Part shown: positions 12,207 to 29,848 of the stretch, piece after piece | Numbering within the stretch: the stretch's first letter is position 1 | Layout of the letters: each line of letters opens with the position of its first letter | Assembly: GCA_041742135.1 (NCBI GenBank) | Contig: JBGSJG010000004.1 | Coordinates: forward strand, 364,758 to 428,757 | DNA: 64,000 bases | Direction: 5' to 3' | DNA from: Patescibacteria group bacterium | Lineage (GTDB): Bacteria; Patescibacteriota; Microgenomatia; UBA8517 | Made by a program: the position numbers and the translations under genes | The notes under the pieces: model-generated | Databases searched by the model: none | What the model was told of the DNA's origin: nothing | Seen by the model: only the letters and a program-made list of their open reading frames with translations

Positions 12207-12944
12207 ATGGATAGCACTAAAAAACGAGTAAATATTCCCTCGTACAAAACTGACAACCCTGTCTTGACCGTTGACGAGCTGCATGAGGTTTCTTGCCAAC
12301 TTCCCCAGGATGATGGAAGGCTTAACTTAATTACGGAAGAATTCAGGCGTGGGTTGGCGTTTATTAAAAGATACCCACGAGCTATTAGTTTTTATGGCTC
12401 CGCCAGACTTGATTCTGAGCACCCCGCATATAAAAAGGCGTACGACCTCGCTTTTCGCATTTCCAAAGAGCTTGGTTATTCTATTGTTACTGGAGGCGGC
12501 CCGGGGATTATGGAGGCGGCCAATAAGGGAGCTTTTGATGCTGGCGGAGATTCACTGGGTCTTAACATCGAATTGCCTCGGGAACAAATTGTAAATCCTT
12601 ATGTTAAGGACTCAGAAGAGTTTTATTACTTTTTCTCGCGCAAAGTTGCACTGTCATTTTCAGCAAACGCATACATTATTTTCCCTGGGGGCTTTGGCAC
12701 TCTTGATGAGTTTTCTGAAATTCTCGAGCTTCTTCAAACTAAGAAAATTCCTCCAGTTCCGCTTGTATTGGTCGACAGCCAGTTTTGGCGCCCGTTAGAT
12801 ATGTATTTTAAAAATACTTTTTATGGTGACTATAAGACTATAAATCTAGAAGACACCGAGCTTTACAAAATTACGGACGATGACGAAGAAATTATGGAAA
12901 TAATTAAAAACGCTCCCAAAAAACAACTCGAACCACGCTATTAA
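12207..12944 (+). CDS. LOG family protein (cytokinin riboside 5'-monophosphate phosphoribohydrolase-like)
   Basis: ISFYGSARL...TGGGPGIMEAANKGA...IIFPGGFGTLDEF, the hallmark LOG/TIGR00730 motifs. The track ORF starts at 12093 and overlaps the convergent gene, so the in-frame ATG at 12207 was chosen. Confidence 0.7.
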   Translation: MDSTKKRVNIPSYKTDNPVLTVDELHEVSCQLPQDDGRLNLITEEFRRGLAFIKRYPRAISFYGSARLDSEHPAYKKAYDLAFRISKELGYSIVTGGGPGIMEAANKGAFDAGGDSLGLNIELPREQIVNPYVKDSEEFYYFFSRKVALSFSANAYIIFPGGFGTLDEFSEILELLQTKKIPPVPLVLVDSQFWRPLDMYFKNTFYGDYKTINLEDTELYKITDDDEEIMEIIKNAPKKQLEPRY

Positions 12945-12954
12945 GGTATAATTA

Positions 12955-13722
12955 GTGATGAGAAAGTTCATGTTTCTGGCTTTAATTCTTGTTTTGGCTG
13001 CAGTAGTAATATCTCGGCTTTCAAATCAAAACAAGCGAGTTTTGGGAGATGAAGTAGTCAACACAAAGTCTCCCTCTTTGGTGGTCAATAAAACCTTACT
13101 TCCCTACCAAGAAGGGGCCCTCACGGCACATTGGGCGGAAGTTGAACCAGACAATGTGATTCTCTTGCCAAATTTTGACGAAAGACTGGCGGCAAGCGAG
13201 CTACTCACCAAGAACGATTGCGAGCTTTTAATCAATGGCGGGTTTTACTCAAAACAAAACGAGCCAATCGGACTTTTTGTCCATGAAAAAAATAAACTGT
13301 CTCCTTATGTTAGTAACCAACTTTTTGATGGGATTTTAAGCGTTAACGATTTTGGTGTGGCAAGAATACTTAGAAATAATGAAGAAGACGCGCGCTTTGC
13401 ACTTCAAAGCGGTCCGATACTCAAAGAAAACGGAGTATGTCAAAGCATAAGTTTGGTTCGTGATGAGCCAGCCAGAAGATCAGTTGCCGCGGTTAGTGCG
13501 GACAACAAATTAATTTTTGTCATTTTCTATAATCCTGATTCAGTGTTTTTGGGACCTTGGCTTTCAGATTTGCCTGAAGTTCTCAAGAGTTTTGAAGAAG
13601 CTGCGGATATAGCGTTGGCTGATGCAGTTAATTTGGATGGAGGCGCTGCTTCTGCTTTTTACACTCAAGGGGTGGGAGTTTCTGAAATCTCTCCGATTGG
13701 TAGCTTCTTTTGCGCTAAGTAA
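12955..13722 (+). CDS. secreted protein, possibly phosphodiester glycosidase-like (DUF2233)
   Basis: Signal peptide and an LINGGFYSKQNEPIGLFVHE motif resembling the NAGPA/DUF2233 family. The match is weak. Confidence 0.35.
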   Translation: MMRKFMFLALILVLAAVVISRLSNQNKRVLGDEVVNTKSPSLVVNKTLLPYQEGALTAHWAEVEPDNVILLPNFDERLAASELLTKNDCELLINGGFYSKQNEPIGLFVHEKNKLSPYVSNQLFDGILSVNDFGVARILRNNEEDARFALQSGPILKENGVCQSISLVRDEPARRSVAAVSADNKLIFVIFYNPDSVFLGPWLSDLPEVLKSFEEAADIALADAVNLDGGAASAFYTQGVGVSEISPIGSFFCAK

Positions 13723-16325: not shown

Positions 16326-16577
16326 TCAAGGAAACTTGCCAGTTGCGGCTTTATTGGATGCTTCGGACAGCAGCATTCTAAACAAAATAAAAAAGGTAAT
16401 TACCAGTATTAACAATATAGGCCAGACAATTGAAGCCCAAATTAGGTAAAATTCCAAATTTGTAGCCATCCCGAGTTCAAGTTGTATTGATATGTTGGCA
16501 AGAAAGCTAATAGCTATGCCCGTAAGTAAGGATGATAATAAAAGTGACCAAAAGGCTGGCAGTATTTTATTATGCAT
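16326..16577 (-). CDS. hypothetical small membrane protein (83 aa)
   Basis: ORF track entry with two or three transmembrane helices. Confidence 0.35.
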   Translation of the reverse strand: MHNKILPAFWSLLLSSLLTGIAISFLANISIQLELGMATNLEFYLIWASIVWPILLILVITFFILFRMLLSEASNKAATGKFP

Positions 16578-17166
16578 TGCTTATTGCTAGAATTAATCGT
16601 GTAAGTTGGAGTGTCGAATTTGCGTTTTTGTTAAGTCGACTTAACGCCTCATCGGCTTCAGCGAGAAGTTTTGCGTTTTCAGGGTGGGTAGCCAGATCTT
16701 TGTGGATTTGAGTTATCAAACTTTTGAGAAATGCCACGGCGTCTTCTCTCTTGTTTAGACTTGAGATAATTTTTAATTTTTCACTTTGGTTTGCCTCAAC
16801 AAAGTTGCCTATCAAGCTCGCATCAGGAGTGTCACTACTGTCGTTAAGCCGGATTAGCTGACACCGTGAGGAAATCGTGGGTAAAACGCTCTCTTCGTTT
16901 TTAACATGCAGTACAAAGGAAAGGTTTTTTTGAGGCTCTTCAAGCCTTTTTAAGAATGAGTTTTGAGCTTCAATCGACGCATTTTCAAAATGCTCTAAGA
17001 CGTAGCAAGTTTTTGCAGGAACCGAAGTGTTCGTTATTTTAATAAGCTGCCTAGTGTCGTCGATCTTTTCGATTTTATAAGGCAAAATCCACTTGGCACC
17101 AGTGAGTTCTTGAGCCTTTTGCAACACAGGATCAAAGTCTCGCGACACTACGATAAATGCATGCAT
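16570..17166 (-). CDS. holB: short DNA polymerase III delta-prime-like protein (198 aa)
   Basis: NSFLKRLEEPQKNLSFVLHVKNEESVLPTISSRCQLIRL matches the delta-prime box (NALLKTLEEPP...LPTIxSRCQ). It is much shorter than canonical HolB. Confidence 0.5.
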   Translation of the reverse strand: MHAFIVVSRDFDPVLQKAQELTGAKWILPYKIEKIDDTRQLIKITNTSVPAKTCYVLEHFENASIEAQNSFLKRLEEPQKNLSFVLHVKNEESVLPTISSRCQLIRLNDSSDTPDASLIGNFVEANQSEKLKIISSLNKREDAVAFLKSLITQIHKDLATHPENAKLLAEADEALSRLNKNANSTLQLTRLILAISNA

Positions 17167-18913
17167 GGTCTATGTTATCATGAAGTGTATGCCTGCCCAG
17201 CAAAATCAGCCTCAGAATAATTCCGTAGTAGACATCTTGGTTTCCCAGGGAGACTTGTCAGCTGAGCGAGCTGAACAGGTAAAGTTTGCCGAAGTTCAAA
17301 CAGGTAAGCCCCTGGAAGATATCTTGCGTGAGCAAAAAATTGTTCCAGAAAGCGCTCTGGCCAAAGCCAAAGCTACTTTTTACAACGTACCATTTATTGA
17401 TCTTGAGAACACTCCAGTAAACCCTGCGGCATTGTCGATAATATCTCAAGAGATAGCTAAAAAGTTTCGAGTATTTCCTCTAAATGCTGACGCTTCACGC
17501 AAAGAGCTTTCGCTTGCTATGGCAGATCCTTTGGATTTGACTGCAATCGAATTTATTGAACAAAAATCCGGTTACCACGTACGCCCGTTGGCGGCAGTGC
17601 CTGATGCAATCGATGAGTTTGTGGCCAAAAGATATTCAACCACGCTTTCTCAAGAAGTTACTGCTGCCTTAAAAGAGGTCTCGGGCCAGGGCGAGGTGCG
17701 GGTTTTGGATGCAAGGATGCAGCAAGGAGGCTTGATTCGCCAGGAGAGAATTTCTGAAGTAGTAACGCATATTTTGGACTTTGCAGTTCGGGCGCGCGCT
17801 TCTGATATTCACATCGAGCCTTTGGAGCGCTCCACTCGCGTTCGCTATAGAATTGATGGAATTCTTCAAGAAAAACTAACTATTCCACACGAGTTGCATG
17901 ATTCTTTGGTTTCAAGAATCAAGATCTTATCTGGAATGAAGATCGATGAAAAAAGAGTCCCACAAGATGGTCGTTTTAACTTTAAAAACCTTTTGGAGGA
18001 GGTTGATCTTCGTGTGTCAACGCTTCCCACAAGCTGGGGCGAGAAAGTTGTTATGCGACTTCTCAAAAAAACCGGTGGTGTTCCCGAGCTCCCCGAGCTT
18101 GGGCTTCGAGGGCGCGCGCTTAAAAATTTGGAAGACTCGATTCTTCGACCGCACGGAATCATCACAATCTGCGGACCGACAGGCTCAGGAAAAACTACTA
18201 CTTTATATTCGATTATCCAAAAGCTTAATACTCCAAAAGTGAATATTATGACTTTGGAGGATCCGGTTGAGTATCGCATTGACGGCGTAAACCAAGTTCA
18301 AGTAAACGCTCAAGTGGGTTTAACTTTTGCTTCAGGTCTTCGGTCGTTTTTAAGGCAGGACCCCAACATTATTCTTGTTGGTGAAATTCGTGATCGAGAA
18401 ACTGCTGAACTTGCTGTTCAGGCTTCGCTGACGGGGCATTTGGTGTTTGCAACGCTTCACACCAACGACGCTGCAGGTGCGCTTCCTAGGCTTTTAGACA
18501 TGGGTGCCGAGCCATTTCTTCTCGCCAGCTCAATGACAGCAATTGTGGCTCAGCGCGTGCTTCGAAAAATTGATGATCGGTTTAAAGAAGCATACGACCC
18601 AGACCCAAAAATCTTGGAAGAAATGCGTGTCGTTTTGGGGCCACTCTTTCCTGCGACGGGGCAAATCAAGTTTTACCGCGGCAGGCCGGCTCCAGAAAAC
18701 AACAACTCGGGGTATCATGGCCGAGTGGGAATTTTTGAAGTGATATCTGTAACGGAAAGCATCGCGTCTTTGATTCTAAAAAGAAGCCCAGCAAGCGAAA
18801 TCGAAGCTGTCGCTAAAAAGGAAGGCATGATTAGCCTGAAACAAGACGGTTACCTTAAGGTTTTGGAAGGGCTTACTACTATTGAAGAAGTGTTGCGAGT
18901 CGCTCAGGAATAA
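17165..18913 (+). CDS. pilB: type IV pilus assembly ATPase PilB (GspE family)
   Basis: N-terminal GSPII_E_N-like region, Walker A GPTGSGKTTT, Asp/His boxes and a C-terminal domain. The start codon overlaps the divergent holB-like start, so the true start may be one of the downstream Met codons at 17180 or 17189. Confidence 0.85.
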   Translation: MVYVIMKCMPAQQNQPQNNSVVDILVSQGDLSAERAEQVKFAEVQTGKPLEDILREQKIVPESALAKAKATFYNVPFIDLENTPVNPAALSIISQEIAKKFRVFPLNADASRKELSLAMADPLDLTAIEFIEQKSGYHVRPLAAVPDAIDEFVAKRYSTTLSQEVTAALKEVSGQGEVRVLDARMQQGGLIRQERISEVVTHILDFAVRARASDIHIEPLERSTRVRYRIDGILQEKLTIPHELHDSLVSRIKILSGMKIDEKRVPQDGRFNFKNLLEEVDLRVSTLPTSWGEKVVMRLLKKTGGVPELPELGLRGRALKNLEDSILRPHGIITICGPTGSGKTTTLYSIIQKLNTPKVNIMTLEDPVEYRIDGVNQVQVNAQVGLTFASGLRSFLRQDPNIILVGEIRDRETAELAVQASLTGHLVFATLHTNDAAGALPRLLDMGAEPFLLASSMTAIVAQRVLRKIDDRFKEAYDPDPKILEEMRVVLGPLFPATGQIKFYRGRPAPENNNSGYHGRVGIFEVISVTESIASLILKRSPASEIEAVAKKEGMISLKQDGYLKVLEGLTTIEEVLRVAQE

Positions 18914-18927
18914 TACATACTGAAAGC

Positions 18928-19986
18928 ATGGAACTAAATCAAATGTTGGACTTGGTTATTGCGCGAAATGCGTCTGATTTGCATTTGATTGCGGGCGTGC
19001 CGCCGACCTTACGTATTGATGGTGAACTTGTACCGATTCCCTCAGAAGCCCCGTTAAGTCCTGAAAAAATCGAGAAACTTTTGCGCTCTACCCTGACCGC
19101 TGAGCAAGCAGAGCAATTGATTGTAAACAAAGAATTGGATTTCTCGCTTTCTTTTTCAGAGCGTGCTCGTTTTCGTGTCAATGCGTATACTCAAAAGCAG
19201 TCCTTGGCTGCAGCTTTTAGATCTATTCCTTTGGAGATTCCTACAATTGATTCCTTGGGCCTTCCCCCTTCGATTCATCAGTTCACCTCTCTCAAGCAGG
19301 GTTTGGTTTTGATAACTGGTCCTACAGGTCACGGTAAATCCACAACTTTGGCGGCAATTCTTGATGAAATAAATGCGAACTTCACGCAGCACATAGTGAC
19401 AATTGAGGATCCGATAGAATTTGTGATCCGCCCAAAGCGCTCGATTATTTCTCAGCGAGAGATGAATAATGATACGCACTCGTGGTCAGTGGCTTTGCGA
19501 TCTGTTCTTCGTGAAGATCCGGATGTGGTTCTTGTAGGTGAAATGCGAGATTACGAAACTATCGCGGCGGCCCTAACTGTCGCTGAAACTGGCCATTTGG
19601 TTTTTGCAACACTGCATACAAACTCCGCGAGCCAAACGGTGGATCGTATTGTGGACGTCTTCCCTAGCGAACAACAGGATCAGGTAAAACTGCAGTTTTC
19701 AAATGTATTGGAAGCTGTTGTCTCTCAGCGCTTAATCCCTGCAATTAGCGGAGGCCGGCTTGTGGCTCATGAGCTTATGATGTCTACTACCGCGATTAAG
19801 ACCGCAATCCGAGAAGGCAAGACTCACCAGATTGACTCAATCATTCAAACTTCTTCCGAGACAGGAATGAATACATTAGAAGCCTCGCTCGCGATTTTGG
19901 TCCGTGACGGCAAGATTACCATGGAAACTGCAAAGACTTATGCCGTGCGACCTGAACAGCTGGCTCGAATGGTTCATAGAGAGTAG
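18928..19986 (+). CDS. pilT: twitching motility ATPase PilT
   Basis: MELNQMLDLVIARNASDLHLIAGVPPTLRIDGEL, GPTGHGKSTT and VLVGEMRDYETI. About 350 aa, as is typical of PilT. Confidence 0.85.
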   Translation: MELNQMLDLVIARNASDLHLIAGVPPTLRIDGELVPIPSEAPLSPEKIEKLLRSTLTAEQAEQLIVNKELDFSLSFSERARFRVNAYTQKQSLAAAFRSIPLEIPTIDSLGLPPSIHQFTSLKQGLVLITGPTGHGKSTTLAAILDEINANFTQHIVTIEDPIEFVIRPKRSIISQREMNNDTHSWSVALRSVLREDPDVVLVGEMRDYETIAAALTVAETGHLVFATLHTNSASQTVDRIVDVFPSEQQDQVKLQFSNVLEAVVSQRLIPAISGGRLVAHELMMSTTAIKTAIREGKTHQIDSIIQTSSETGMNTLEASLAILVRDGKITMETAKTYAVRPEQLARMVHRE

Positions 19987-19995
19987 CTTCAACTT

Positions 19996-21198
19996 ATGAA
20001 AAAATACAGATATACTGCCCGAGACAGGAACGGAAAGTCGGTTACAGGTGAGGTGGAGGCTTCAACAGAACAAGTCGCCGCGAGGTTAATACGGGAGCGT
20101 GGCTACATCTTAATAAAGTTAAAATTAAGCGGTGGCTTTTTTGGATTGGGCGCAAAACTTAAAGGCCACGTTTCAGGCAAAGACGTATCCGCCTTTACGA
20201 GGCAGCTGGCAACTATGATAAATGCCGGCCTTCCCGTAACTGAGTCTCTTCAGATATTGCGTCTTCAGTCTACCGCTGGCTTAAAAGAAGTATCCACGCA
20301 AATATTGGCAGATGTTGAGTCTGGTGAAAGTCTATCCAAGGCTTTTGAAAAACACCCAAAGGTATTTTCGAGTACCTATATAGCTTTGGTTCGAGCTGGT
20401 GAGGCAGGAGGAGTTTTGGACAAGGTGCTCAATCGCTTAGCGGATGACTTGGAAAAATCTCAGGAGTTTCGAGGCCGTGTCAAAGGCGCCATGATTTACC
20501 CTGCTATTATCGTGATCGGAATGGTTGCAGTTTCTTTGATTATGGTGGTTTTTATAATGCCGCGCTTGACGGATCTTTATTCACAATTTGGCGCAGAGCT
20601 TCCCATAACGACTCGAATGCTGACCGGCTTTAGTGGCTTCCTTATTAATTTTTGGTACATAGTACTGGTACTGCTTGCTATCGCTTTTTTTGGCTTTCAG
20701 GCTTATGCAAAGACACCCAAGGGTAAGCATAAAATTGCAGAGATCATGTTTAAAATTCCAATTGTTGGACCGCTGCAGAAGGAAGTTATCTTAACCGAGC
20801 TTACACGAACACTTGCCTTGATGGTTGGCTCGGGTGTGGCAATTCTTGATGGGCTTGGTATTACTTCTCGCGTGGTGGGGAACGTAATAATTTCCGACGC
20901 CTTGGTAGGAGCGGCCAAAAATGTGGAAAAAGGTTTTCCAATTTCTTACTCGTTCGCGCAGTACCCCGATGCATTTCCTTATATTTTGGCTCAAATGGTT
21001 GCTGTCGGCGAGGAGACGGGAAAGATGGAAGAAGTCTTGGTAAAAGTCTCGCATGTTTTTGAAGTGGATAGTGAGCAGAAAGTTAAAGCCTTAACAGCAG
21101 CTATTGAGCCTATCATTATGATTGTTTTGGGTATTGGAGTGGCGTTTTTGGTGGTTTCGGTGATACTGCCGATTTATAACTTGACAACATCTATTTAA
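19996..21198 (+). CDS. pilC: type IV pilus platform protein PilC (GspF family)
   Basis: 400 aa with two GspF repeats and three transmembrane segments (LADDLEKSQEFRGRVKGAMIYPA...). Confidence 0.85.
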   Translation: MKKYRYTARDRNGKSVTGEVEASTEQVAARLIRERGYILIKLKLSGGFFGLGAKLKGHVSGKDVSAFTRQLATMINAGLPVTESLQILRLQSTAGLKEVSTQILADVESGESLSKAFEKHPKVFSSTYIALVRAGEAGGVLDKVLNRLADDLEKSQEFRGRVKGAMIYPAIIVIGMVAVSLIMVVFIMPRLTDLYSQFGAELPITTRMLTGFSGFLINFWYIVLVLLAIAFFGFQAYAKTPKGKHKIAEIMFKIPIVGPLQKEVILTELTRTLALMVGSGVAILDGLGITSRVVGNVIISDALVGAAKNVEKGFPISYSFAQYPDAFPYILAQMVAVGEETGKMEEVLVKVSHVFEVDSEQKVKALTAAIEPIIMIVLGIGVAFLVVSVILPIYNLTTSI

Positions 21199-21240
21199 TA
21201 AGTTGATACTGAAATATATGCGATTGGAGGTGATAACAAT

Positions 21241-21816
21241 ATGACTATTAGAAATAATAAAGGATTTACGCTTGTTGAGCTCTTGATTGTTATCGCCATT
21301 TTGGGCACGCTCGCTGTGGTAGTTCTAATTGCACTTAATCCAGTTCAACAGCTGGCTAGAACTAGAGACGCAGGCCGCCTTTCAACCATTACACAGCTTG
21401 GGCATACAATGCAGGCTTTGGCTACTGGTAGAAATGGTGTCTATCCTACTAACGGTGGAGCAGGCGATTGTGAATATGGAGAAACTTCAGGTGCAGCCTG
21501 GATAGACAACTGTCTGGTGACTGCAGGAGAGCTCAATTCATTGCCGGTGAATCCTTCGTATAGCGCATTGGCGGGCAGTGCATTTCCAGGCTGTGGTGTT
21601 AGCGCTACTGCACAAGGCGACTGGTGTTACAGAAGCACGGCTTCGAGTGCTGCGATTTACACTCGTCCTGAATCAAATAGCAACATAAATATTTGTCCCG
21701 GCGGTAGTACTGCGTGGCTATTGTATTCCACTACTGCGGGTAAAGGTGGTGTTTGGTGTGGTGGTGCCGACCCTGGAGCAGCTATTACAGGAGCTGACAC
21801 AGGTTGGATCGACTAA
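21241..21816 (+). CDS. pilA: type IV pilin, candidate major pilin (prepilin N-terminal methylation motif)
   Basis: NNKGFTLVELLIVIAILGTLAVVVLIAL has Gly at -1, Phe at +1 and Glu at +5. The C-terminus is Cys-containing, and a strong terminator lies immediately downstream. Confidence 0.75.
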   Translation: MTIRNNKGFTLVELLIVIAILGTLAVVVLIALNPVQQLARTRDAGRLSTITQLGHTMQALATGRNGVYPTNGGAGDCEYGETSGAAWIDNCLVTAGELNSLPVNPSYSALAGSAFPGCGVSATAQGDWCYRSTASSAAIYTRPESNSNINICPGGSTAWLLYSTTAGKGGVWCGGADPGAAITGADTGWID

Positions 21817-21829
21817 GGTTCACAGTTTA

Positions 21830-21862
21830 AACGTCCCGATGGAAACACCGGGACGTTTTATT
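21830..21862 (+). terminator. rho-independent terminator after the major pilin gene
   Basis: ACGTCCCG-ATGGAAACAC-CGGGACGT hairpin followed by TTTATTGTTG. Confidence 0.6.
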
Positions 21863-21877
21863 GTTGTAAAATAAGAC

Positions 21878-22276
21878 ATGAAGATAATTAAAATTCTTTT
21901 ACCCTTTTTGCTCCTTACTCCTTTAGTCGTTTTGGGCTATCGGGTTTACGATCCCTCAGAGCGAGCCGAACTCGCCTCAGACCGTGATGCTCAGGGTACA
22001 GTAGGCTATATGGCCCGCACTATTGAAGCAGCAGCATTGGCTGCTCAGCCTGTCCCCTTTCAAGCTGATGAGCTGGGTTGCGCAAAAGTTGATGGCTATT
22101 GTTATGTGGCAAACGACGAAGGTTTTATTGTTTATACCCTCGCCAAGTCTTTAACTTGGAAGGAATACTGTCACCAAAATACTACTTACATTCTTCATTC
22201 CTCGGTTGATAATTTTAATGGCATTGTGTGCGTTGACCCTCCAAAGCCCGGTAAGCAAAAATTTATTAATTCGTAA
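21878..22276 (+). CDS. secreted hypothetical protein (132 aa) with conserved Cys, inside the pilus locus
   Basis: Signal peptide MKIIKILLPFLLLTPLVVLG and Cys residues (GCAKVDGYCY...CHQ...CVDPP). No motif recognised. Confidence 0.4.
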   Translation: MKIIKILLPFLLLTPLVVLGYRVYDPSERAELASDRDAQGTVGYMARTIEAAALAAQPVPFQADELGCAKVDGYCYVANDEGFIVYTLAKSLTWKEYCHQNTTYILHSSVDNFNGIVCVDPPKPGKQKFINS

Positions 22277-22520
22277 GTTGCTCTTCGATTTTGACTATTC
22301 GATCTTCATGGTCCGTTACGCGGTTTACTATGATAACTTTCTCGTCATCATGATCGGATAACTTTTTATATATTCTAGAAGTCACTTCGTAAAACTCCTC
22401 TTTAGTTGGAAGGTGACTGATATCTGCTTTGCGCACAAAATCAACCGACTCCTCTTTGAATATTTGTCGTATCAAATTGCCAAGTGCCTGAAATTGATCT
22501 TCACTGAAGGATTTAATCAT
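22266..22520 (-). CDS. hypothetical small cytoplasmic protein (84 aa), antisense to the pilus operon
   Basis: ORF track entry. It is charged, without a transmembrane segment, and is the only minus-strand ORF between pilA and pilD. Confidence 0.35.
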   Translation of the reverse strand: MIKSFSEDQFQALGNLIRQIFKEESVDFVRKADISHLPTKEEFYEVTSRIYKKLSDHDDEKVIIVNRVTDHEDRIVKIEEQLTN

Positions 22521-22554
22521 GCATGCATGTTAGCACATTTGTTACAATGGACTA

Positions 22555-23334
22555 ATGGAGCTTCTTTTGCTTTTTGTAGCGGGTTCAGTCGCGGGATCTT
22601 TCTTGGGAGCTTTGACTTGGCGAGCTCCAAGAAATATTTCCATAGCTGCGGGAAGGAGCTTTTGCCCTCACTGCAAGCACGCTATCAGGTGGTTCGACAA
22701 CATCCCAATAGTTTCATATATAGTCTTGGGAGGAAAATGCAGGGATTGCAAAGCCGCCATACCTAGGCGAGACTGGTTTATCGAGTTGGCCATTGCGCTT
22801 TCTTTCCCAGTTATTTATTTGGCGCAAAACAGTCTTACTCAAAACATTACTTGGCTTTATGGTGTCAACGGACTGGTCCAGTTAGCAATACTGTTGTTTT
22901 TGCTTCTGTTGTCAGCTGGAATTTTTATAATCGATATTGAGCATCAATATATTCCCGACACTATGGTTTTTGTGATGTTAGCTATTGTGATACTTTCGAT
23001 GCTTGGGTTTTCGAGCCCTCAGCTTTTTGTTCACATCGCCTCCGGCCTTGGCGCAGCTGTTTTTTTACTACTGATTCATCTGGCCACTTTGGGCCGGGGT
23101 ATGGGCCTTGGGGATGTTAAGCTTGTATTGGCATTGGGCATGGTATTGGGTTTTCCTCTGACGGTAGTTTTTATGTTTCTGGCTTTTTCGATAGGTTCAA
23201 TTGTTGGGCTTGTGTTTATTATTTTAGGCAAAGCGAAGCTTAAACAAAAAATCGCTTTTGGCCCTTTTTTGATTCTGGGCTTTTGGCTTGCAGCAATTTA
23301 CGGGAATAACTTTTTGACAATATTTTATATATGA
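22555..23334 (+). CDS. pilD: prepilin peptidase PilD (A24 family)
   Basis: CPHCKHAIRWFDNIPIVSYIVLGGKCRDCKAAIP (N-terminal zinc-binding tetracysteine), multiple transmembrane segments and GLGDVKLVLALG. Confidence 0.8.
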   Translation: MELLLLFVAGSVAGSFLGALTWRAPRNISIAAGRSFCPHCKHAIRWFDNIPIVSYIVLGGKCRDCKAAIPRRDWFIELAIALSFPVIYLAQNSLTQNITWLYGVNGLVQLAILLFLLLLSAGIFIIDIEHQYIPDTMVFVMLAIVILSMLGFSSPQLFVHIASGLGAAVFLLLIHLATLGRGMGLGDVKLVLALGMVLGFPLTVVFMFLAFSIGSIVGLVFIILGKAKLKQKIAFGPFLILGFWLAAIYGNNFLTIFYI

Positions 23335-23885
23335 GGATATTAGGCTTTAAAAAAATAGAATTTATCTGGGTATTTGTGGTTTTGGTAGCAATTGGTTTTG
23401 CTACTTATACTAATTTGCAAATTTCGCTTCGCCGCGGCCGCGATGTTCAGCGAAAAAGTGACATTAAAGTCATCCATGATGCACTACTTTCTTACTTTGT
23501 GGATGAATCCTCTTTCCCTCAAGCCTTTGAAGGCAAAATCGTTGCATGTTTTGGCGGAGTGGATGCACAAGGCATTGCCCAACCTACTGCGTGCGACTGG
23601 TCTCGCGACAGTTTGACAAACATCTGGTCAAACGCGGTTTATCTCCCCCACTTGCCCACAGACCCACACCATAATGATGGCGCACGGTATTACTATATTT
23701 CAAACGGCAGATACTTCCAGCTTTACGCCGCTCTTGAGAGCTCAAGTGAGGCAGAATATGACAAGTCAATTGTCGCCCGCAACATAATGTGCGGAGATCG
23801 GGTGTGCAACTTTGGGCTTGCTTCCTACGGCGCTCCCCTTGATAAATCTATCGAAGAATATGAGAATGAATTAAGGATGAAATGA
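23331..23885 (+). CDS. prepilin-like (pseudopilin) protein
   Basis: LGFKKIEFIWVFVVLVAIG has Gly at -1, Phe at +1 and Glu at +5. It is followed by RRGRDVQRKSDIKVIHDALLSYF, paralogous to the downstream pilins. Confidence 0.5.
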   Translation: MRILGFKKIEFIWVFVVLVAIGFATYTNLQISLRRGRDVQRKSDIKVIHDALLSYFVDESSFPQAFEGKIVACFGGVDAQGIAQPTACDWSRDSLTNIWSNAVYLPHLPTDPHHNDGARYYYISNGRYFQLYAALESSSEAEYDKSIVARNIMCGDRVCNFGLASYGAPLDKSIEEYENELRMK

Positions 23886-24328
23886 AAAAAGGTTTTACAC
23901 TGATTGAACTATTAATTGTTGTCGCAGTTTTGGGTGTTTTGGGATCAATTGTCGTAATCAGTTTTAACGGCTCTCAGGCTTCGGCTCGTGATGCAAGGCG
24001 AGCTTCAGACGTTCGGCAATATGCAGTGGCGCTTGAGTCTTACTCAAACTCTCACAGTGGCAACTACCCCAGTGGAGACTTAACAATTAGTAGCTCAGCC
24101 GTGCTTTGCCCAACTATTAATGTTGGCAATTGTGCACTAGATCCCAAAAACACCTCGCCATATCAATATAGGTACAATTCTAATGGCGCGACTTACGCTC
24201 TTTGGGCGCGCCTTGAGAGAAACGCCGGAGCCACGGCGCAATATTTTGTTCTTTGCTCTGATGGAAAAGTTGGTAAAACTACTAATGATCCAGCCGGTGG
24301 GTGTGGCAGCGTGACAATAATTCCATGA
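23882..24328 (+). CDS. type IV pilin paralog
   Basis: MKKGFTLIELLIVVAVLGVLGSIVVISF and QASARDARRASDVRQYAVALESYSN. ATGA overlap with the upstream gene. Confidence 0.7.
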   Translation: MKKGFTLIELLIVVAVLGVLGSIVVISFNGSQASARDARRASDVRQYAVALESYSNSHSGNYPSGDLTISSSAVLCPTINVGNCALDPKNTSPYQYRYNSNGATYALWARLERNAGATAQYFVLCSDGKVGKTTNDPAGGCGSVTIIP

Positions 24329-24804
24329 GAGTAAACAGATCTGGTTTTACTTTGATCGAACTTTTGGTTGTTATGATAATAATTATGGCACTCGGAACAA
24401 TTGCAGTTATCACATTTACCGGGGCGCAGGCCTCGGCTCGTGACGCTAGGCGTATTTCTGATTTGAAAGAGTACCAAACTGCTTTGGAATTGTACTCAAA
24501 CGGTAATGATTTTTATTATCCAAGGCACCCATCGTGTTCTTCTTTTTTCTGTCTATTAAGCCCTCAGCCATACGATGCTGTGGGTTTATGTAGTCGTTTG
24601 GGGCTAGCTAACTGCGCGCGCGACCCTAAAGTTGCTGATAGCTGGCAGGACTATAAATATATTACGAACGCTTTGCTAGAGCGATATGTTTTGTGGGCGC
24701 GTCTTGAAAAGACTGACGAATATTTTGTGGTATGTTCTAACGGAAAAAGCGGGAAAGAACCTGTCAGTGGTTTTAGTGCATATGCAGCAAATTGCCCAAT
24801 TTAA
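24325..24804 (+). CDS. type IV pilin paralog
   Basis: MRVNRSGFTLIELLVVMIIIMALGTIAVITF and QASARDARRISDLKEYQTALELYSN. The track ORF starts at 24301, but the ATG at 24325 gives an ATGA overlap with the upstream stop. Confidence 0.7.
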   Translation: MRVNRSGFTLIELLVVMIIIMALGTIAVITFTGAQASARDARRISDLKEYQTALELYSNGNDFYYPRHPSCSSFFCLLSPQPYDAVGLCSRLGLANCARDPKVADSWQDYKYITNALLERYVLWARLEKTDEYFVVCSNGKSGKEPVSGFSAYAANCPI

Positions 24805-25238
24805 TGATCAAAAATAAAGGTTTTACACTTATTGAGCTTTTGGTGACAATATCCATAATTGGATTGTTGGCCTCCATTGCCACTTTTGCTCTGACTAATG
24901 CCCAAAAAAGCGCTCGAGATGGAAAGAGAAAGGCGGATTTGGAAAATGTTGCAATCGGGCTTGAGTTGTATCGTTCTGATTGTGGCGCGTATCCAAGCGG
25001 TGTGTCTTTTGGAGGAACTTTGATGGGCAGTGGTTCTTGTAACGGTGTTACTTATATTTCAGACGTTCCAAATGATCCAAAAGCACCTAGAGTTTATAGA
25101 TACTACTCGGTTGCTCCGTTTGTGTCTTACAAGCTCTGTGCCCTGCTCGAAGAGACGCCGGGAACTACTTATAATGTTACAGGGTGCCTCGACTGCGAAA
25201 CTGGTGTAAGTTGCAATTATTCAATTTCTAGGCCATGA
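24804..25238 (+). CDS. type IV pilin paralog
   Basis: MIKNKGFTLIELLVTISIIGLLASIA and QKSARDGKRKADLENVAIGLELY. The track ORF starts at 24792, and the ATG at 24804 gives a TAATG overlap with the upstream stop. Confidence 0.7.
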   Translation: MIKNKGFTLIELLVTISIIGLLASIATFALTNAQKSARDGKRKADLENVAIGLELYRSDCGAYPSGVSFGGTLMGSGSCNGVTYISDVPNDPKAPRVYRYYSVAPFVSYKLCALLEETPGTTYNVTGCLDCETGVSCNYSISRP

Positions 25239-25741
25239 AGAGAGGTTTCTCGCTTATCGAGCTTTTGGTGGTAATTAGCATTATGGGCCTGCTTCTTATT
25301 GGCGGTGTGATTGGTTATCGCGAGTACGCCAGACGACAGGAAACGCAGAATGTAAAACGGCAAATTATTACTGATCTTCGAGAGGCACAGTCTAATGCTT
25401 CAAATGGCTACAAACCGTCAGGATGTGCTGGTACACTTTTGGGTTATGGTTTTGAGGTCACAAGCCCCAGTAGTATCCTCCCCCCCGGAAGTTACGAAGT
25501 TTATGCTGAGTGCGAGACCGGCCCCGGAACTTCGGCACGCTACAACATAATTGAGAGGAATTACAATTCGATATTAGTCACACGTCCTGCCACCAACCCG
25601 ATCATCTTTGAGCCTTTGGATCTTGGTACCAACTTGGGTTCGGCGGTATCGATTAGTGCTGTAAATTTTAACGACTGGCTTGATTTTGGTGATGATTACA
25701 CTTTGACCGTTTCTGTAAGCCCTGTGGGTGAAATAAGATGA
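25235..25741 (+). CDS. type IV pilin paralog
   Basis: MKRGFSLIELLVVISIMGLLLIGGVIGY. ATGA overlap with the upstream gene. Confidence 0.7.
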   Translation: MKRGFSLIELLVVISIMGLLLIGGVIGYREYARRQETQNVKRQIITDLREAQSNASNGYKPSGCAGTLLGYGFEVTSPSSILPPGSYEVYAECETGPGTSARYNIIERNYNSILVTRPATNPIIFEPLDLGTNLGSAVSISAVNFNDWLDFGDDYTLTVSVSPVGEIR

Positions 25742-26178
25742 TAAAAAACACCAAAGGCCAATCAATGTTTGAGCTTTTGGTTGCTGTGTTTGTAGTTGCT
25801 GTGACGTTAGTGGCACTACTTGGGCTTGTGACTGGGGCAATTGGAAACTCAACCTTTGCCGGCGAGAGGACACAAGCTGCGAAATATACTCAGCAAGCAG
25901 TTGAGTGGTTGCGCGCGCAAAGGGATGCTGATTGGGCAGTTTTTTCCGGCCGCGGAAGCGAAGCAGGAACAACATACTGCCTAAATGGGCTGGACTGGAA
26001 CACAGGAGGCTGTAGTAGCGCTGAACTGATTGACGCCAAATTCAAGCGCGAAGTAGTTTTGATTTATGATTCGGCAGCTGAATCAGTAGAAGCCCAGATC
26101 ATTACAAGCTGGAGTGACGCCTCGGGGCTACATGAGTCGAAAGCAACGACTAATTTTACCAATTGGAGGACAAGATGA
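25738..26178 (+). CDS. minor pilin-like protein (PilV/PilW-like)
   Basis: KGQSMFELLVAVFVVAVTLVALLGL, a prepilin-type N-terminus with Glu at +5. ATGA overlap with the upstream gene. Confidence 0.5.
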   Translation: MIKNTKGQSMFELLVAVFVVAVTLVALLGLVTGAIGNSTFAGERTQAAKYTQQAVEWLRAQRDADWAVFSGRGSEAGTTYCLNGLDWNTGGCSSAELIDAKFKREVVLIYDSAAESVEAQIITSWSDASGLHESKATTNFTNWRTR

Positions 26179-26684
26179 AAAAAGGATTCTCGCTTATTGA
26201 GACACTAGTTGTTATCGGGCTTTTTGCGTTAATTGCGACAGTTGTCGCTCGCTCGACCGCATTTAGCTTGTCAGGATCGAGAAAATCTGACACGTCATCA
26301 ATGGTTCGTGAAGAGCTTGAGAACGCTGTTGGAGTTGTTGAGCGGCATTTGCGATCAGCTAAAAGTATAGACGCAACCAGCTGTACAGGCTTGGAGATGT
26401 CGTCAATAAATTACATCGACCAGTCTGGAGCAGCAGCGACCTTTACTTGTGTGGAAGATGGTGACTGTTCGGGCACACCTGATTCGCAAATTGCGTGGAG
26501 TGGTTCAAGGCTCACGAGCCAGCAAAATATCTGTCTTAGGCAGTGCAAGTTTACTTGCACACAGGCCGTCGGCAATCTGCCGCCGACAGTAAAAATTTTG
26601 GTTGAAGGTGTTGCTAAAGGAACAACTGGGGTTGAGGGCTCTGCAATAACAGTCGAAACGAGCGTAACTCTTAGGGCTTATTGA
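26175..26684 (+). CDS. minor pilin-like protein
   Basis: MKKGFSLIETLVVIGLFALIATVVA. The track ORF starts at 26163, and the ATG at 26175 gives an ATGA overlap. Confidence 0.6.
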   Translation: MKKGFSLIETLVVIGLFALIATVVARSTAFSLSGSRKSDTSSMVREELENAVGVVERHLRSAKSIDATSCTGLEMSSINYIDQSGAAATFTCVEDGDCSGTPDSQIAWSGSRLTSQQNICLRQCKFTCTQAVGNLPPTVKILVEGVAKGTTGVEGSAITVETSVTLRAY

Positions 26685-26714
26685 CTGGTGTAAGTAGTCC
26701 CTCTAAACTGAAAC

Positions 26715-27614
26715 ATGGAGTCAACTATGCAAAAAAACAATTCCGGACAGGTTCTTCTTTTGGTTCTTTTGGCTATGGCCGCTGTAGCCACAATGGCGCT
26801 TTCTGTGGTTTCACGGTCTATTACAGGCGTGACAGTTTCCACCCGTGACGAGGAATCTTTAAGGGCCTTTTCTGCTGCTGAAGCAGGGGTTGAACAAGCG
26901 CTTGTTACCGGAACTCAACAAGGTATTATTGATGGTAGTGTGGACCCCATTGTGCAAACTTTCCCCGCCGCGGACGGAACATCGCTCGTAAGTAGTTTCA
27001 CAGCAAACATTGAGCGTTATCCGCCCAATGCCTCTCAGTTTAATTACCCTTTCGAACTTGAAAGCGGTGAATCCGGCTCTGTTTGGCTTGCTACAAAAAG
27101 TGGCAGTGAGGTTTTGGATTGTAGTGGCCCTGGTTCTGGTGAGTGTTTTTCTGGTGCAAGTTTAAATCTTTGTTGGGGAAAGGTAGGATCAGATTTGTCA
27201 GCTGTTATGGTTAATATTTTGTACAAAGACGCTACTGACCAGTATGCTACTCGCCCAGTTGGGTACGATCCAGATCCAAGCCGTAGAAGCACCAATAATT
27301 TTTTGGCTACAGGAAGCGCTACTGCCATAGACATAGATGGTCAGGCTTATGCTGCGTGTGCTAATTTGAATCTCGATGCTCTTATTGGCGCATCGAGTAC
27401 CCCAATTCTCATGCGTGTGACGAGTCTTTATAACACTGTGCCACAAATCTTTGGCGTTAGTGCATCAAGTAACTTACCAATTCAAGGCCGCAAAGTTAGT
27501 TCTACTGGAGTATCAGGAGACTCGAGCCGTAAAATTGATGCATTTTTACTTAACCCTGAAGTACCATTTATTTTTGATGCTGCCGTTTATTCAGAGGGAG
27601 GACTTACAAAATGA
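26715..27614 (+). CDS. PilX-like pilus-associated protein
   Basis: NNSGQVLLLVLLAMAAVATMALSVVSRS...RAFSAAEAGVEQAL resembles the PilX N-terminal domain. Confidence 0.5.
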   Translation: MESTMQKNNSGQVLLLVLLAMAAVATMALSVVSRSITGVTVSTRDEESLRAFSAAEAGVEQALVTGTQQGIIDGSVDPIVQTFPAADGTSLVSSFTANIERYPPNASQFNYPFELESGESGSVWLATKSGSEVLDCSGPGSGECFSGASLNLCWGKVGSDLSAVMVNILYKDATDQYATRPVGYDPDPSRRSTNNFLATGSATAIDIDGQAYAACANLNLDALIGASSTPILMRVTSLYNTVPQIFGVSASSNLPIQGRKVSSTGVSGDSSRKIDAFLLNPEVPFIFDAAVYSEGGLTK

Positions 27615-28630
27615 GTATAGGACTAGACATTGGATCAAAATCAATTAAGGTAGTCGAGCTTGCTCGTGAGGGCAAAGAGTGGGCTCTTCGGTCTGCGGGC
27701 GCCGTGGGATATGCCGGGCCAGTGATTGACGCATCTTTTAGCGATGAAAAAGCGATTGCTGAAATTGCTGGGGTTATTAAAAAATTACTCAAAGACGCAA
27801 GGATCAATGGCCGAGACATTTCAATATCTCTTCCAGAGACTCAGGTTTTTACTCGTGTGATGCAATTTCCCCTTCTGACCGATGCTGAGATTGCCTCGGC
27901 AGTAAAATGGGAAGCTGAGGAATACATTCCAATACCAATCAAGGACGCAATAATTGAGCATCAAGTTATTGAGCGAGTAGAAAACGCAAACCCTCCACAA
28001 GTTTTGGTTTTGTTGGTGGCCGCACTTCGTAGTTTGGTCGAAACCTATGTAAATATTTGTAGTAAAGCTGGCTTAAATGTTGTTGGCGTGGAAACCGAGC
28101 TTGTATCGATGATCCGAAGCTTGGCTCAGCCTGAAAAGGCCGTCTTGATCGTCGATTTTGGAGCTCACTCGACAGACATTGCCATCACTAAAAACGAACA
28201 GCTTTATTTTTCCCGTTCTATCCCCACAGCAGGTGACGCATTTACGCGCGCTGTGGCTCAGTCGCTTGGGGTTACAATCCAGCAGGCAGAAGAATATAAG
28301 CGAACATACGGACTAAGCGAGGATCAACTCGAAGGCAAAGTTGGGCAATCTTTGGAACCAATAATCAAAATGGTGGTAACTGAAATCAAAAAAGCCATCC
28401 ATTACTATCAGCTCAACATCAAAGGAGAAAGCCCAAATTCGATAATTCTTGCTGGGGGCTCCGCTGGGTTGCCCGGTGTTGCACCTATTTTAACAAGTAA
28501 TTTGGGAATAGAAGTAGTTATTGGCTCAGCTTTTGGCAAGGTGAAAGTAGATCCAAACATTGCTAAAAGCTTGGCTAACTATGCTCCCCTTTATGCTGTC
28601 GCGGCAGGTTTAGCTATGAGAGGAGACTAA
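27611..28630 (+). CDS. pilM: type IV pilus assembly protein PilM (actin-like ATPase)
   Basis: MSIGLDIGSKSIKVVEL at the N-terminus. About 340 aa with an ASKHA fold pattern. Confidence 0.8.
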   Translation: MSIGLDIGSKSIKVVELAREGKEWALRSAGAVGYAGPVIDASFSDEKAIAEIAGVIKKLLKDARINGRDISISLPETQVFTRVMQFPLLTDAEIASAVKWEAEEYIPIPIKDAIIEHQVIERVENANPPQVLVLLVAALRSLVETYVNICSKAGLNVVGVETELVSMIRSLAQPEKAVLIVDFGAHSTDIAITKNEQLYFSRSIPTAGDAFTRAVAQSLGVTIQQAEEYKRTYGLSEDQLEGKVGQSLEPIIKMVVTEIKKAIHYYQLNIKGESPNSIILAGGSAGLPGVAPILTSNLGIEVVIGSAFGKVKVDPNIAKSLANYAPLYAVAAGLAMRGD

Positions 28631-28631
28631 A

Positions 28632-29156
28632 ATGGTTAGTATCAACCTTCTACCCAAAGACTCGGCTCCAAGTAAAAATGAGCTAAGGTTTGCTAGCGCT
28701 ATCAATAAAATCGCGATGTTTTCGGTCGCAGTTTTCCTACTTATTTGTGTTTTTGGAGGTGGGGCATATTTTATTCTTGCGCGGCAATTGCAAAGCGCAA
28801 ACGACGATGCCCAGCGACTATCAACTAGTGTACAGAGCTTGCAGTCAAGTGAATCTAGTTTAATTTTGATACGCGACCGCGTTCAAAAAGCTCAAGCTGC
28901 GCTTAATTCACGAATTAGTGAGGGCTATTTTGATAAACATCAAAAAATATTATCTCTGGATATTCCTGGCATCAGTTTTGTAAGTAGCACTGTTGATTCT
29001 GGAAAGTCTGTTATAGAGCTTGAAATTTCAGGCTCGGCGAGTATGGCTTCTCTTTTTTCAACGCTCTTGGCAGATAGCCAATTTTCATCATTGATATTGG
29101 AAAAATTGTCATATAACTCTCTTACCGGATACGATGTGACACTGCAAGTATATTAG
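28632..29156 (+). CDS. pilN: type IV pilus assembly protein PilN
   Basis: MVSINLLPKD (the INLLP motif), followed by a transmembrane segment and a coiled coil. Confidence 0.65.
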   Translation: MVSINLLPKDSAPSKNELRFASAINKIAMFSVAVFLLICVFGGGAYFILARQLQSANDDAQRLSTSVQSLQSSESSLILIRDRVQKAQAALNSRISEGYFDKHQKILSLDIPGISFVSSTVDSGKSVIELEISGSASMASLFSTLLADSQFSSLILEKLSYNSLTGYDVTLQVY

Positions 29157-29158
29157 CT

Positions 29159-29848
29159 ATGAAGTACAATAAATATCGCAAACTAGTTTTGCCCGCCGGA
29201 GTGGCACTTTTTATGATAGTAGGAAGTGTGTTTTTGGCAAATTTTTTGTACACCAGAATAACGCAGATTTTGGCAGAGACCGCGCAGCAAGACACAAAAA
29301 ACAACATTCTTGAGGGCAGACTCGCAACTCTTCAGGCATTGTCGGAAGACATCAAAGAAGGTGCTAATGCTGTAACGTTTGCAATTCCTGACAAAAACCC
29401 TTCAGTTTTAATCCTGAATCAACTCAAGAGTTTAGCAGGTGACAATAACATACTTCTTGAAAATATTTCAATTTCTTCACAGCCATTGGCCGAAGAAACT
29501 GGACTTGTATCTTATACAATTAGTTTTGAAGCTCAGGCTTCCAGCACTCAAATTCTTATAGATTTTGTCGACGGACTATCTAGCGTAACACCCATTATAA
29601 ATATTTCGACTCTAGAGATTAAAAGCGGCCTTGCTTCTGATGTCACGGCTACCTTGGGCCTTATGGCATATTCTGCGCCATTTCCCGAGCAATTGCCTGC
29701 TTTAGAAGAGCCTTTGGTAGGTTTATCCCCTGAGGAGCAGTCAGTTCTTGATACAATTCAGACATTTACGCGACCTGAAGTTTTTACCTCGGGCGATCCA
29801 GCCACGCAAGTAGTACCGAGGGAAAATCCATTCTTCTTGGAATTTTAG
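29159..29848 (+). CDS. PilO-like pilus assembly protein
   Basis: Single transmembrane segment plus a coiled-coil and periplasmic domain, positioned after pilN. Confidence 0.5.
   Translation: MKYNKYRKLVLPAGVALFMIVGSVFLANFLYTRITQILAETAQQDTKNNILEGRLATLQALSEDIKEGANAVTFAIPDKNPSVLILNQLKSLAGDNNILLENISISSQPLAEETGLVSYTISFEAQASSTQILIDFVDGLSSVTPIINISTLEIKSGLASDVTATLGLMAYSAPFPEQLPALEEPLVGLSPEEQSVLDTIQTFTRPEVFTSGDPATQVVPRENPFFLEF

Follow-up and report, generated by a model that had tools for sequence, protein, structure and literature searches.

Type IV pili (T4P) are leading candidates for the means by which the ultrasmall bacteria of the Candidate Phyla Radiation (CPR) locate, hold on to, and exploit their hosts. 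Gene clusters for such pili have already been published for CPR bacteria, including Microgenomates. In numerous CPR genomes, PilB, PilT, PilC, PilM, PilN, PilO, and PilD co-localize with pilins, and PilQ is absent (Meheust et al., 2019, PMC6744442). A complete Microgenomates genome carries a single-locus T4P with PilA, minor pilins of the PilE/GspJ/PilW type, PilD, PilB, PilT, PilC, and PilM, again with no PilQ (Kadnikov et al., 2020, PMC7143001). Two T4P have been dissected in the Saccharibacteria member TM7x; the first of the two loci encodes the same machinery together with five pilins, the PilX1 protein of this system (T4P-1) possesses a β-jelly-roll domain and lacks a PilD signal, and pilin sequences from different CPR phyla could scarcely be aligned (Grossman et al., 2024, PMC11623550). 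Here we describe the pilus gene cluster present on a stretch of 64,000 nucleotides (hereafter the window; contig JBGSJG010000004.1 of assembly GCA_041742135.1) from a Patescibacteria group bacterium with a tiny genome. Our analysis indicates that this region very probably is a single, chromosomally fixed T4P cluster of a Woesebacteria/Microgenomates bacterium that resembles type IVa pilus (T4aP) systems, lacks a secretin, and possesses an old rather than a recently expanded pilin array.

In comparison with the single-locus T4P reported from CPR bacteria and Microgenomates, the cluster has the same component list, is likewise contained in one locus, and has no PilQ; we found no essential difference. 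It is an ordinary example of such loci and reveals no new principle. Its comparison with related genomes yields a parts list for the pilus of the Microgenomates, which consists of a major pilin, three conserved GspG-like orthogroups, a putative set of minor pilins in H-I-J-K order that ends with a β-sandwich PilX-like protein, and PilMNO, with no secretin; the Woesebacteria among them are without a cultured representative. Compared with the modal related locus, the window contains one extra GspG-like pilin (p3) and an unrelated insertion (m84). Judged by its published description, T4P-1 of Nanosynbacter lyticus TM7x also unites PilC, PilB, PilT, PilM/N/O, PilD, and pilins in one locus, and it shares with the window a large PilX-type minor pilin with a β-sandwich/jelly-roll domain and a non-canonical signal, as well as minor pilins that resemble pseudopilins of type II secretion systems (T2SS). 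It differs in the number of its pilins (five, versus nine pilin-like proteins here) and in its origin from the Saccharimonadia instead of the Microgenomatia.

The original prediction for this region, made from the DNA letters alone, had called a complete T4P locus with a retraction ATPase, and our profile searches bore this out by recovering the PilB, PilT, PilC, PilD, and PilM families directly and PilN and PilO by way of their orthologues. PilT scored 447 bits against the PilT/PilU model TIGR01420 (cutoff 319) and has Walker A (GPTGHGKS) and Asp boxes, the motif DPDVVLVGEMRD, and the sequence AIKTAIRE, a variant form of AIRNLIRE, the motif specific to PilT. PilB matched Pfam T2SSE with 406 bits and also MshEN, and among the NCBIfam models it reached 538 bits with TIGR02538 (equivalog cutoff 676) and 546 bits with TIGR02533, both values being below the equivalog cutoffs; its Walker A motif (GPTGSGKT), the motif DPNIILVGEIRD, and an Asp box were found. 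PilC contains two T2SSF domains (PF00482; 203 bits) and scored 300–348 bits with the PilC/GspF models of NCBIfam. The peptidase PilD combines A24_N_bact (PF06750; 93 bits) with Peptidase_A24 (PF01478; 52 bits) and keeps both CxxC pairs and both catalytic Asp residues (Asp127 and that of GLGD186). A C-terminal tetracysteine zinc motif is typical of PilB/GspE proteins; it was not found in the PilB of the window, whose only two cysteines are at positions 8 and 336, and at least four cysteines within the last 170 residues are present in 24 of the 74 PilB orthologues of related loci.

PilM was identified by its own score (PilM_2, 171 bits; TIGR01175, 190 bits with a cutoff of 133). The PilN and PilO proteins of the window, like its PilX-like protein (x299), gave no significant match of their own in Pfam or NCBIfam, and we tested their identities through orthologue alignments built from related loci; most of the other Pil and pilin domains were recovered directly. 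Two of 21 PilN orthologues match Pfam PilN (PF05137; 3.4e-8), and their N-terminal sequence INLLP is almost invariant; in the Thermus PilM-PilN structure, this peptide binds PilM. A profile search of the PDB returned nothing meaningful for PilN, and the orthologue profile of PilO matched PilO of Myxococcus xanthus (3jc8; E = 8e-6, 28.6 bits); the window PilO itself matched GspM weakly. The PilM-PilN-PilO alignment subcomplex was recovered in this way. Pfam scans of the genes of the locus and of larger open reading frames (ORFs) of the window revealed neither PilP nor the PilQ secretin, and neither TsaP nor PilY1 was found in the window. Lack of PilP and PilQ agrees with what has been reported for all CPR (PMC6744442) and is expected for a monoderm-type variant. 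With the diderm T4aP of Pseudomonas aeruginosa and M. xanthus the locus has in common PilB/PilT, PilC, PilD, PilM-N-O, and a putative core minor-pilin operon of four genes in the order FimU-PilV-PilW-PilX; it differs from them by the undetected PilP, PilQ, TsaP, and PilY1, the concentration in a single locus, the additional GspG-like pilins, and a PilB without tetracysteine.

For the gene inventory (Table 1), ORFs were listed across 15–32 kb of the window and were found at the coordinates given in the original prediction. The pilin stretch at 23331–26684 had been described as six consecutive genes; it contains seven genes (p1 to p7, encoding 144–184 aa) and six junctions. Nor are all genes of the region co-directional, as had been proposed, since m84 (22266–22520) is encoded on the minus strand. 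The start/stop overlaps noted previously as a sign of coupling could be confirmed: eight of them form a chain from pilD to the seventh pilin gene and, in addition, connect x299 with pilM, with ATGA at pilD/p1, p1/p2, p2/p3, p4/p5, p5/p6, p6/p7, and x299/pilM and TAATG at p3/p4. Such overlaps occur at 8 of the 15 co-directional junctions of the locus versus 3 of 38 in the remainder of the window (Fisher p = 7.6e-4). The proteins that result from the ATG starts of p3 (24325), p4 (24804), and p7 (26175) are identical to records from a 453,693-bp NCBI contig. In related loci, neighboring genes from pilD onward overlap or are no more than 20 nt apart at 345 of 431 junctions, so that the operon is compact throughout its relatives. 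The chain of overlaps argues for translational coupling, which would suit this array because a stoichiometric priming/tip complex gains from equimolar synthesis of its subunits. An Rfam scan detected tRNAs only and no regulatory RNA within the pilus locus. An 18-nt inverted repeat (25457–25474 and 25815–25832; 94% complementary, arms 340 nt apart) spans the p5/p6 junction and may be a product of chance.

Table 1. Genes and sequence signals of the pilus locus (positions are those of the window).
Feature	Position	Strand	Remark
pilB, extension ATPase (GspE/PilB family)	17165..18913	+	582 aa
pilT, retraction ATPase	18928..19986	+	352 aa
pilC, inner-membrane platform protein	19996..21198	+	400 aa
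Promoter-like site TTGACA-18-GATACT	21181-21210	+	Consensus scan, 10/12 matches; pattern match only
GGAGG Shine-Dalgarno sequence ahead of pilA	21226-21230	+	Read from the upstream sequence
pilA, candidate major pilin, KG|FTLVE	21241..21816	+	191 aa
Intrinsic-terminator-like hairpin with U-rich tail, 3' of pilA	~21829..21858	+	Folding
orf132, membrane-anchored pilin-like protein without prepilin cleavage motif	21878..22276	+	132 aa
m84, opposite-strand gene between orf132 and pilD	22266..22520	-	84 aa
pilD, prepilin peptidase/N-methyltransferase	22555..23334	+	259 aa
p1, GspG-like, atypical signal LG|FKKIE, acidic C-terminal tail	23331..23885	+	
p2, GspG-like pilin, KG|FTLIE	23882..24328	+	
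p3, GspG-like pilin from an old, lineage-specific duplication shared with p2	24325..24804	+	
p4, GspG-like pilin	24804..25238	+	
p5, minor pilin, GspH/FimU-like	25235..25741	+	
p6, minor pilin, PilV/GspI-like, KG|QSMFE	25738..26178	+	
p7, minor pilin, GspJ/PilW-like	26175..26684	+	
x299, large minor pilin resembling PilX, SG|Q, without Glu+5; candidate tip subunit	26715..27614	+	299 aa
pilM, actin-like cytoplasmic alignment protein	27611..28630	+	339 aa
pilN, bitopic alignment protein	28632..29156	+	174 aa; directly 3' of pilM
pilO, bitopic alignment protein	29159..29848	+	229 aa

To count the prepilins, we used a class III signal pattern in which Gly is followed by either a hydrophobic residue or Gln, then by any three residues, and finally by Glu and a hydrophobic run. 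The pattern occurs exactly eight times in the six frames of the 64 kb, always at the N-terminus of a gene of the locus (pilA and p1 to p7). Six of these proteins (PilA, p2, p3, p4, p5, and p7) also match N_methyl/TIGR02532, and p6 does so weakly. With one major pilin, the seven proteins p1 to p7, and the PilX-like x299, the locus possesses nine pilin-like genes, or 10 if orf132 is included. The breakdown of the original prediction into a major pilin, eight further prepilins, and a PilX-like gene does not hold, since there are eight genes with the Gly-to-Glu signature plus the PilX-like one. Nine pilin-like genes are not exceptional; the T4aP of Neisseria and Pseudomonas use six to eight pilins.

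We consider PilA (N_methyl, 35 bits; TIGR02532, 31 bits) the candidate major pilin, since its gene has its own Shine-Dalgarno sequence, a promoter-like site, and a terminator hairpin, and since its content of Gly, Ala, Ser, and Thr is the highest of the locus (44%, versus 26–40% in the other pilin-like proteins and 29–31% in PilT, PilC, and PilM). The same compositional measure served as a major-pilin criterion in TM7x (PMC11623550). The terminator previously assigned to the major pilin gene was found by folding (minimum free energy, -21.2 kcal/mol; z, -3.18) and was missed by a consensus terminator scan; among 88 pilA copies of relatives, 21 have a similar hairpin behind them, and the nearest relative is one of these cases.

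Within the array, p2 (N_methyl, 30 bits; TIGR01710, 36.5 bits), p3 (N_methyl, 29.5 bits), and p4 (N_methyl, 34.8 bits; TIGR01710, 49 bits; T2SSG, 18 bits) are GspG-like, and p1 gave weak T2SSG/TIGR01710 matches. The next gene product, p5, matched N_methyl (28 bits), the GspH model TIGR01708 (29.9 bits), and PRK10506 (33 bits), and its orthologue profile matched FimU weakly over the full domain (4ipu; E = 0.22). PilV (TIGR02523; 34 bits, E 3e-8) and XpsI (20 bits) were matched by p6, and p7 showed structural matches to GspJ/XcpW/EpsJ; in searches of the PDB, the profiles of p5, p6, and p7 found matches only through the common N-terminal helix. From these modest scores, we infer an array of four G-like pilins followed by H-, I-, J-, and K/PilX-like proteins, an arrangement also found in gspG-K and in fimU-pilV-pilW-pilX. 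The proteins p1 to p4 appear to be conserved accessory pilins.

The large protein x299 at the end of this series has an invariant Gly-Gln site and lacks Glu+5, and 20 of 30 orthologues match Pfam PilX_N (best value, 4.8e-7). Its AlphaFold2 model, computed from a 63-sequence alignment (pLDDT 89.8), consists of a 55-residue N-terminal helix and a β-sandwich domain. A profile search of the PDB returned nothing meaningful for this protein.

By homology to studied T4P, these components suggest the following working model. PilD would cut the short leader of the prepilins after Gly, and p5, p6, p7, and x299, in the order of GspH-I-J-K or FimU-PilV-PilW-PilX, would assemble on PilC and PilM-N-O as a priming complex whose roughly equimolar synthesis the ATGA and TAATG overlaps could ensure through coupled translation of the minor-pilin set. 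PilB would then polymerize PilA, expressed separately and probably more strongly, beneath this complex, which would thereby end at the tip of the pilus with the β-sandwich of x299 exposed. Depolymerization of the filament by PilT would cause its retraction and could serve attachment to hosts or surfaces, twitching, and/or DNA uptake. A number of observations weigh against this reading. PilB and PilC stay below the NCBIfam equivalog cutoffs and are therefore divergent members of their families, and PilN and the PilX-like protein stay below the Pfam thresholds. A Foldseek search of the PDB with the x299 model found nothing at E < 1e-3; x299 is thus without a significant solved structural relative, so that a role as an adhesin is a guess. 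The choice of PilA over p2 to p4 as the major pilin is indirect.

A PilT search restricted to one genome per species returned 488 relatives, the best of which were metagenome-assembled genomes (MAGs) of Candidatus Woesebacteria (83 and 77% identity). Next came Blackburn-, Curtiss-, and Gottesmanbacteria, which likewise belong to the Microgenomates. By these matches, the organism is a relative of the Woesebacteria/Microgenomates within the CPR; the CPR-like nature that had been proposed for it stands, and the comparison with Saccharibacteria that accompanied this proposal holds by analogy only. We retrieved 80 related loci with flanks of 10 kb, called their ORFs, and compared these with the window proteins by BLAST; orthologous and syntenic loci came from MAGs of all four groups. 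As far as the DNA reaches, the gene order is pilB-pilT-pilC-pilA (one to three copies)-pilD-pilins-PilX-like-pilM-pilN-pilO. Upstream, holB is present in 68 and gyrB in 64 of the 80 loci; downstream, where the 10-kb flanks seldom reach, KH was seen in 16 loci, rpsP in 17, and rnc in 14. With its shared gene order and its conserved gyrB-holB and KH-rpsP-rnc flanks, the cluster is a core locus that has been inherited vertically. In comparison with the nearest relative, identity is 86% for PilB, 83% for PilT, and 77% each for PilC and PilM; it amounts to 43–59% for the pilins, 40% for PilN, and 38% for PilO. Among the 28 loci that are complete from pilD to pilM, the interval from pilD to the PilX-like gene most often contains six pilins (15 loci); five loci have seven, as does the window, three have nine, and five have two to four.

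The original prediction had read the array as a recent paralog expansion that might serve variation in host range or phase. If this were so, recombination among similar copies would generate antigenic or phase variation, and several features could be taken in this sense: the copy number of GspG-like pilins varies among related genomes, with two to nine pilins separating pilD from the PilX-like gene; p2 and p3 form a sister pair in this genome; the pilins diverge faster than the machinery (43–59 versus 77–86% identity to the nearest relative); and p5 contains a C7 homopolymer (25480–25486), the only such run in the 13-kb locus and a possible slippage tract. The relationships among the pilins argue otherwise. 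In a neighbor-joining tree, calculated without bootstrap support, the GspG-like pilins of 17 genomes fall into three orthogroups (p1, p2/p3, and p4), each of which extends across genomes, and one-to-one orthologues of p1, p2/3, p4, p5, p6, p7, and x299 are found throughout the Woesebacteria. The p2 and p3 proteins of the window are long-branched sisters and the sole in-genome sister pair; independent duplications are seen in other genomes. Even this pair is a mere 51% identical, a divergence similar to that between orthologues in the nearest relative, and the other pairs are more distant (p3/p4, 41%; p2/p4, 38%; p1/p2, 32%). The shared Q(A/K)SARD core, which had been ascribed to five pilins, is complete in p2, p3, and p4 and merely partial in p1 and PilA; its pattern SARD..R.SD....ALE.Y recurs in all three orthogroups and in all relatives and is the conserved α-1C helix motif of GspG/T2SSG-type pilins in general. 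Common possession of a pilin motif and of a position in the gene chain is no evidence of recent expansion. A check for recombination among the pilins found no repeats of the required grade: N-terminal coding segments of 29–32 nt share 66–86% identity, and the longest repeat, a 68-nt stretch of p2 versus p3 with 75% identity, is too diverged for homologous recombination cassettes. Neither TRF nor our repeat searches detected relevant tandem or simple-sequence repeats in the locus, and no invertible-element repeats, silent partial copies, or further prepilin motifs were found in the 64 kb. Among the repeats and homopolymers of the locus, we see no evidence for variation by recombination or slippage, and the number of pilins is ordinary. 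A recent expansion is thus highly improbable, and a role of the array in host range or phase variation is not supported; to judge from tree and alignments, the array is a set of old, vertically inherited, and functionally differentiated orthogroups with one old duplication (p2/p3).

With regard to function, the locus might primarily encode a competence pilus, with retraction by PilT drawing DNA to a ComEC channel encoded elsewhere. PilT, which this reading needs, is present, and T4P together with ComEC are widely reported from CPR genomes, for which DNA uptake has been proposed as a role of the pilus (PMC6744442, PMC7143001). However, no ComEA, ComEC, or DprA was recognized among the window ORFs scanned with Pfam, a scan that did not include every ORF, and in TM7x it is T4P-1 that is linked to twitching and essential, whereas the dispensable T4P-2 had no effect on transformation (PMC11623550). 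A ComG pseudopilus was rejected: ComGA reached 257 bits (cutoff 300), ComGB 130 bits (240), and ComGC-GF 14–26 bits (49–80), and the locus has PilT and PilMNO, which ComG systems do not possess. We regard a primary competence function as rather unlikely; roles in competence and in attachment or motility are not mutually exclusive. The array order and fold classes appear to match those of the gspG-H-I-J-K genes of T2SS (p1–p4, G; p5, H; p6, I; p7, J; x299, K), and p1 to p4 find their best NCBIfam matches in GspG. PilB and PilC score as high on GspE/GspF models as on PilB/PilC models, and TM7x makes two distinct pili (PMC11623550), so that p1 to p4 could conceivably build a T2SS-like pseudopilus or another type of filament as a second fiber on the same machine. 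Yet the locus contains a single set of ATPase, platform, and alignment proteins, and p1 to p4 have no promoter or terminator signals of their own and form one translational chain with the minor pilins, which fits low-abundance subunits. GspC, GspD, GspL, and GspM were not found, and the GspG scores of 22–49 bits fall far below the equivalog cutoff of 88.85. We consider two fibers improbable. Membership of the locus in a T2SS was rejected because GspE, GspF, and GspG all stay below their equivalog cutoffs, these four Gsp components were not found, and PilT and PilMNO are present. A T4aP-like pilus with an old pilin array remains the reading that we favor.

Within this pilus, the p1 family is an atypical component and the most unusual detail of the locus. 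Directly following pilD, to which it is translationally coupled by an ATGA overlap, p1 has 56 homologues in which the signal retains Gly-1 in 25, Phe+1 in 50, Lys/Arg+3 in 55, and Glu+5 in 53 cases; the family has four conserved Cys residues, and its acidic extracellular C-terminal tail (...PLDKSIEEYENEL) is invariant. The product of orf132, located between pilA and pilD, has no Pfam or NCBIfam family match and possesses a transmembrane helix and no cleavage motif. BLAST detected homologues of it in just 2 of the 80 related loci; the one of the nearest relative (positions 12919–13362 of its locus; 33% identity) shows the pilin-type motif ARD..R..D...L..Y....G.YP after the transmembrane helix. 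The orf132 product probably represents a degenerate pilin-like protein, perhaps the one that had been counted as the eighth prepilin. Since Gly-1 of p1 is not conserved and its tail is invariant, and since orf132 has no cleavage site, one may speculate that both, p1 in many species, remain uncleaved in the membrane as pilin-like proteins that are no filament subunits and instead form a base, an anchor, or a gate of the secretin-less machine, possibly specific to Microgenomates; we regard this idea as doubtful.

The m84 gene located between orf132 and pilD belongs to no Pfam family, and none of the 80 related loci contains it. That it is a spurious ORF was rejected since 66 homologues (E ≤ 1e-3) were found in a set of 1.84 billion representative proteins; its exact protein is also on record from the NCBI contig. 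It is an interloper of an uncharacterized family of small proteins and no pilus component. At the same place, the nearest relative has a different plus-strand ORF of 99 aa (13411–13710 of its locus), whose sequence, read by eye, resembles a GIY-YIG nuclease. Given these different small ORFs, small insertions seem to be tolerated in this variable slot between orf132 and pilD.

Upstream of the locus, the holB gene (DNA polymerase III delta'-like; 16570–17166, minus strand) encodes just 198 aa and shares its start codon region with the start of pilB on the opposite strand, where the two overlap (17165/17166). Its product matches only positions 82–159 of the 161-position DNA_pol3_delta2 profile, which fits an earlier remark on shortened housekeeping genes. 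About 11–15 kb upstream of the locus, the window encodes a 288-aa lamin-tail-domain protein (2387–3253, plus strand) and a 656-aa protein (4135–6105, minus strand) that contains the complete Beta_propel domain (PF09826; 369 bits).

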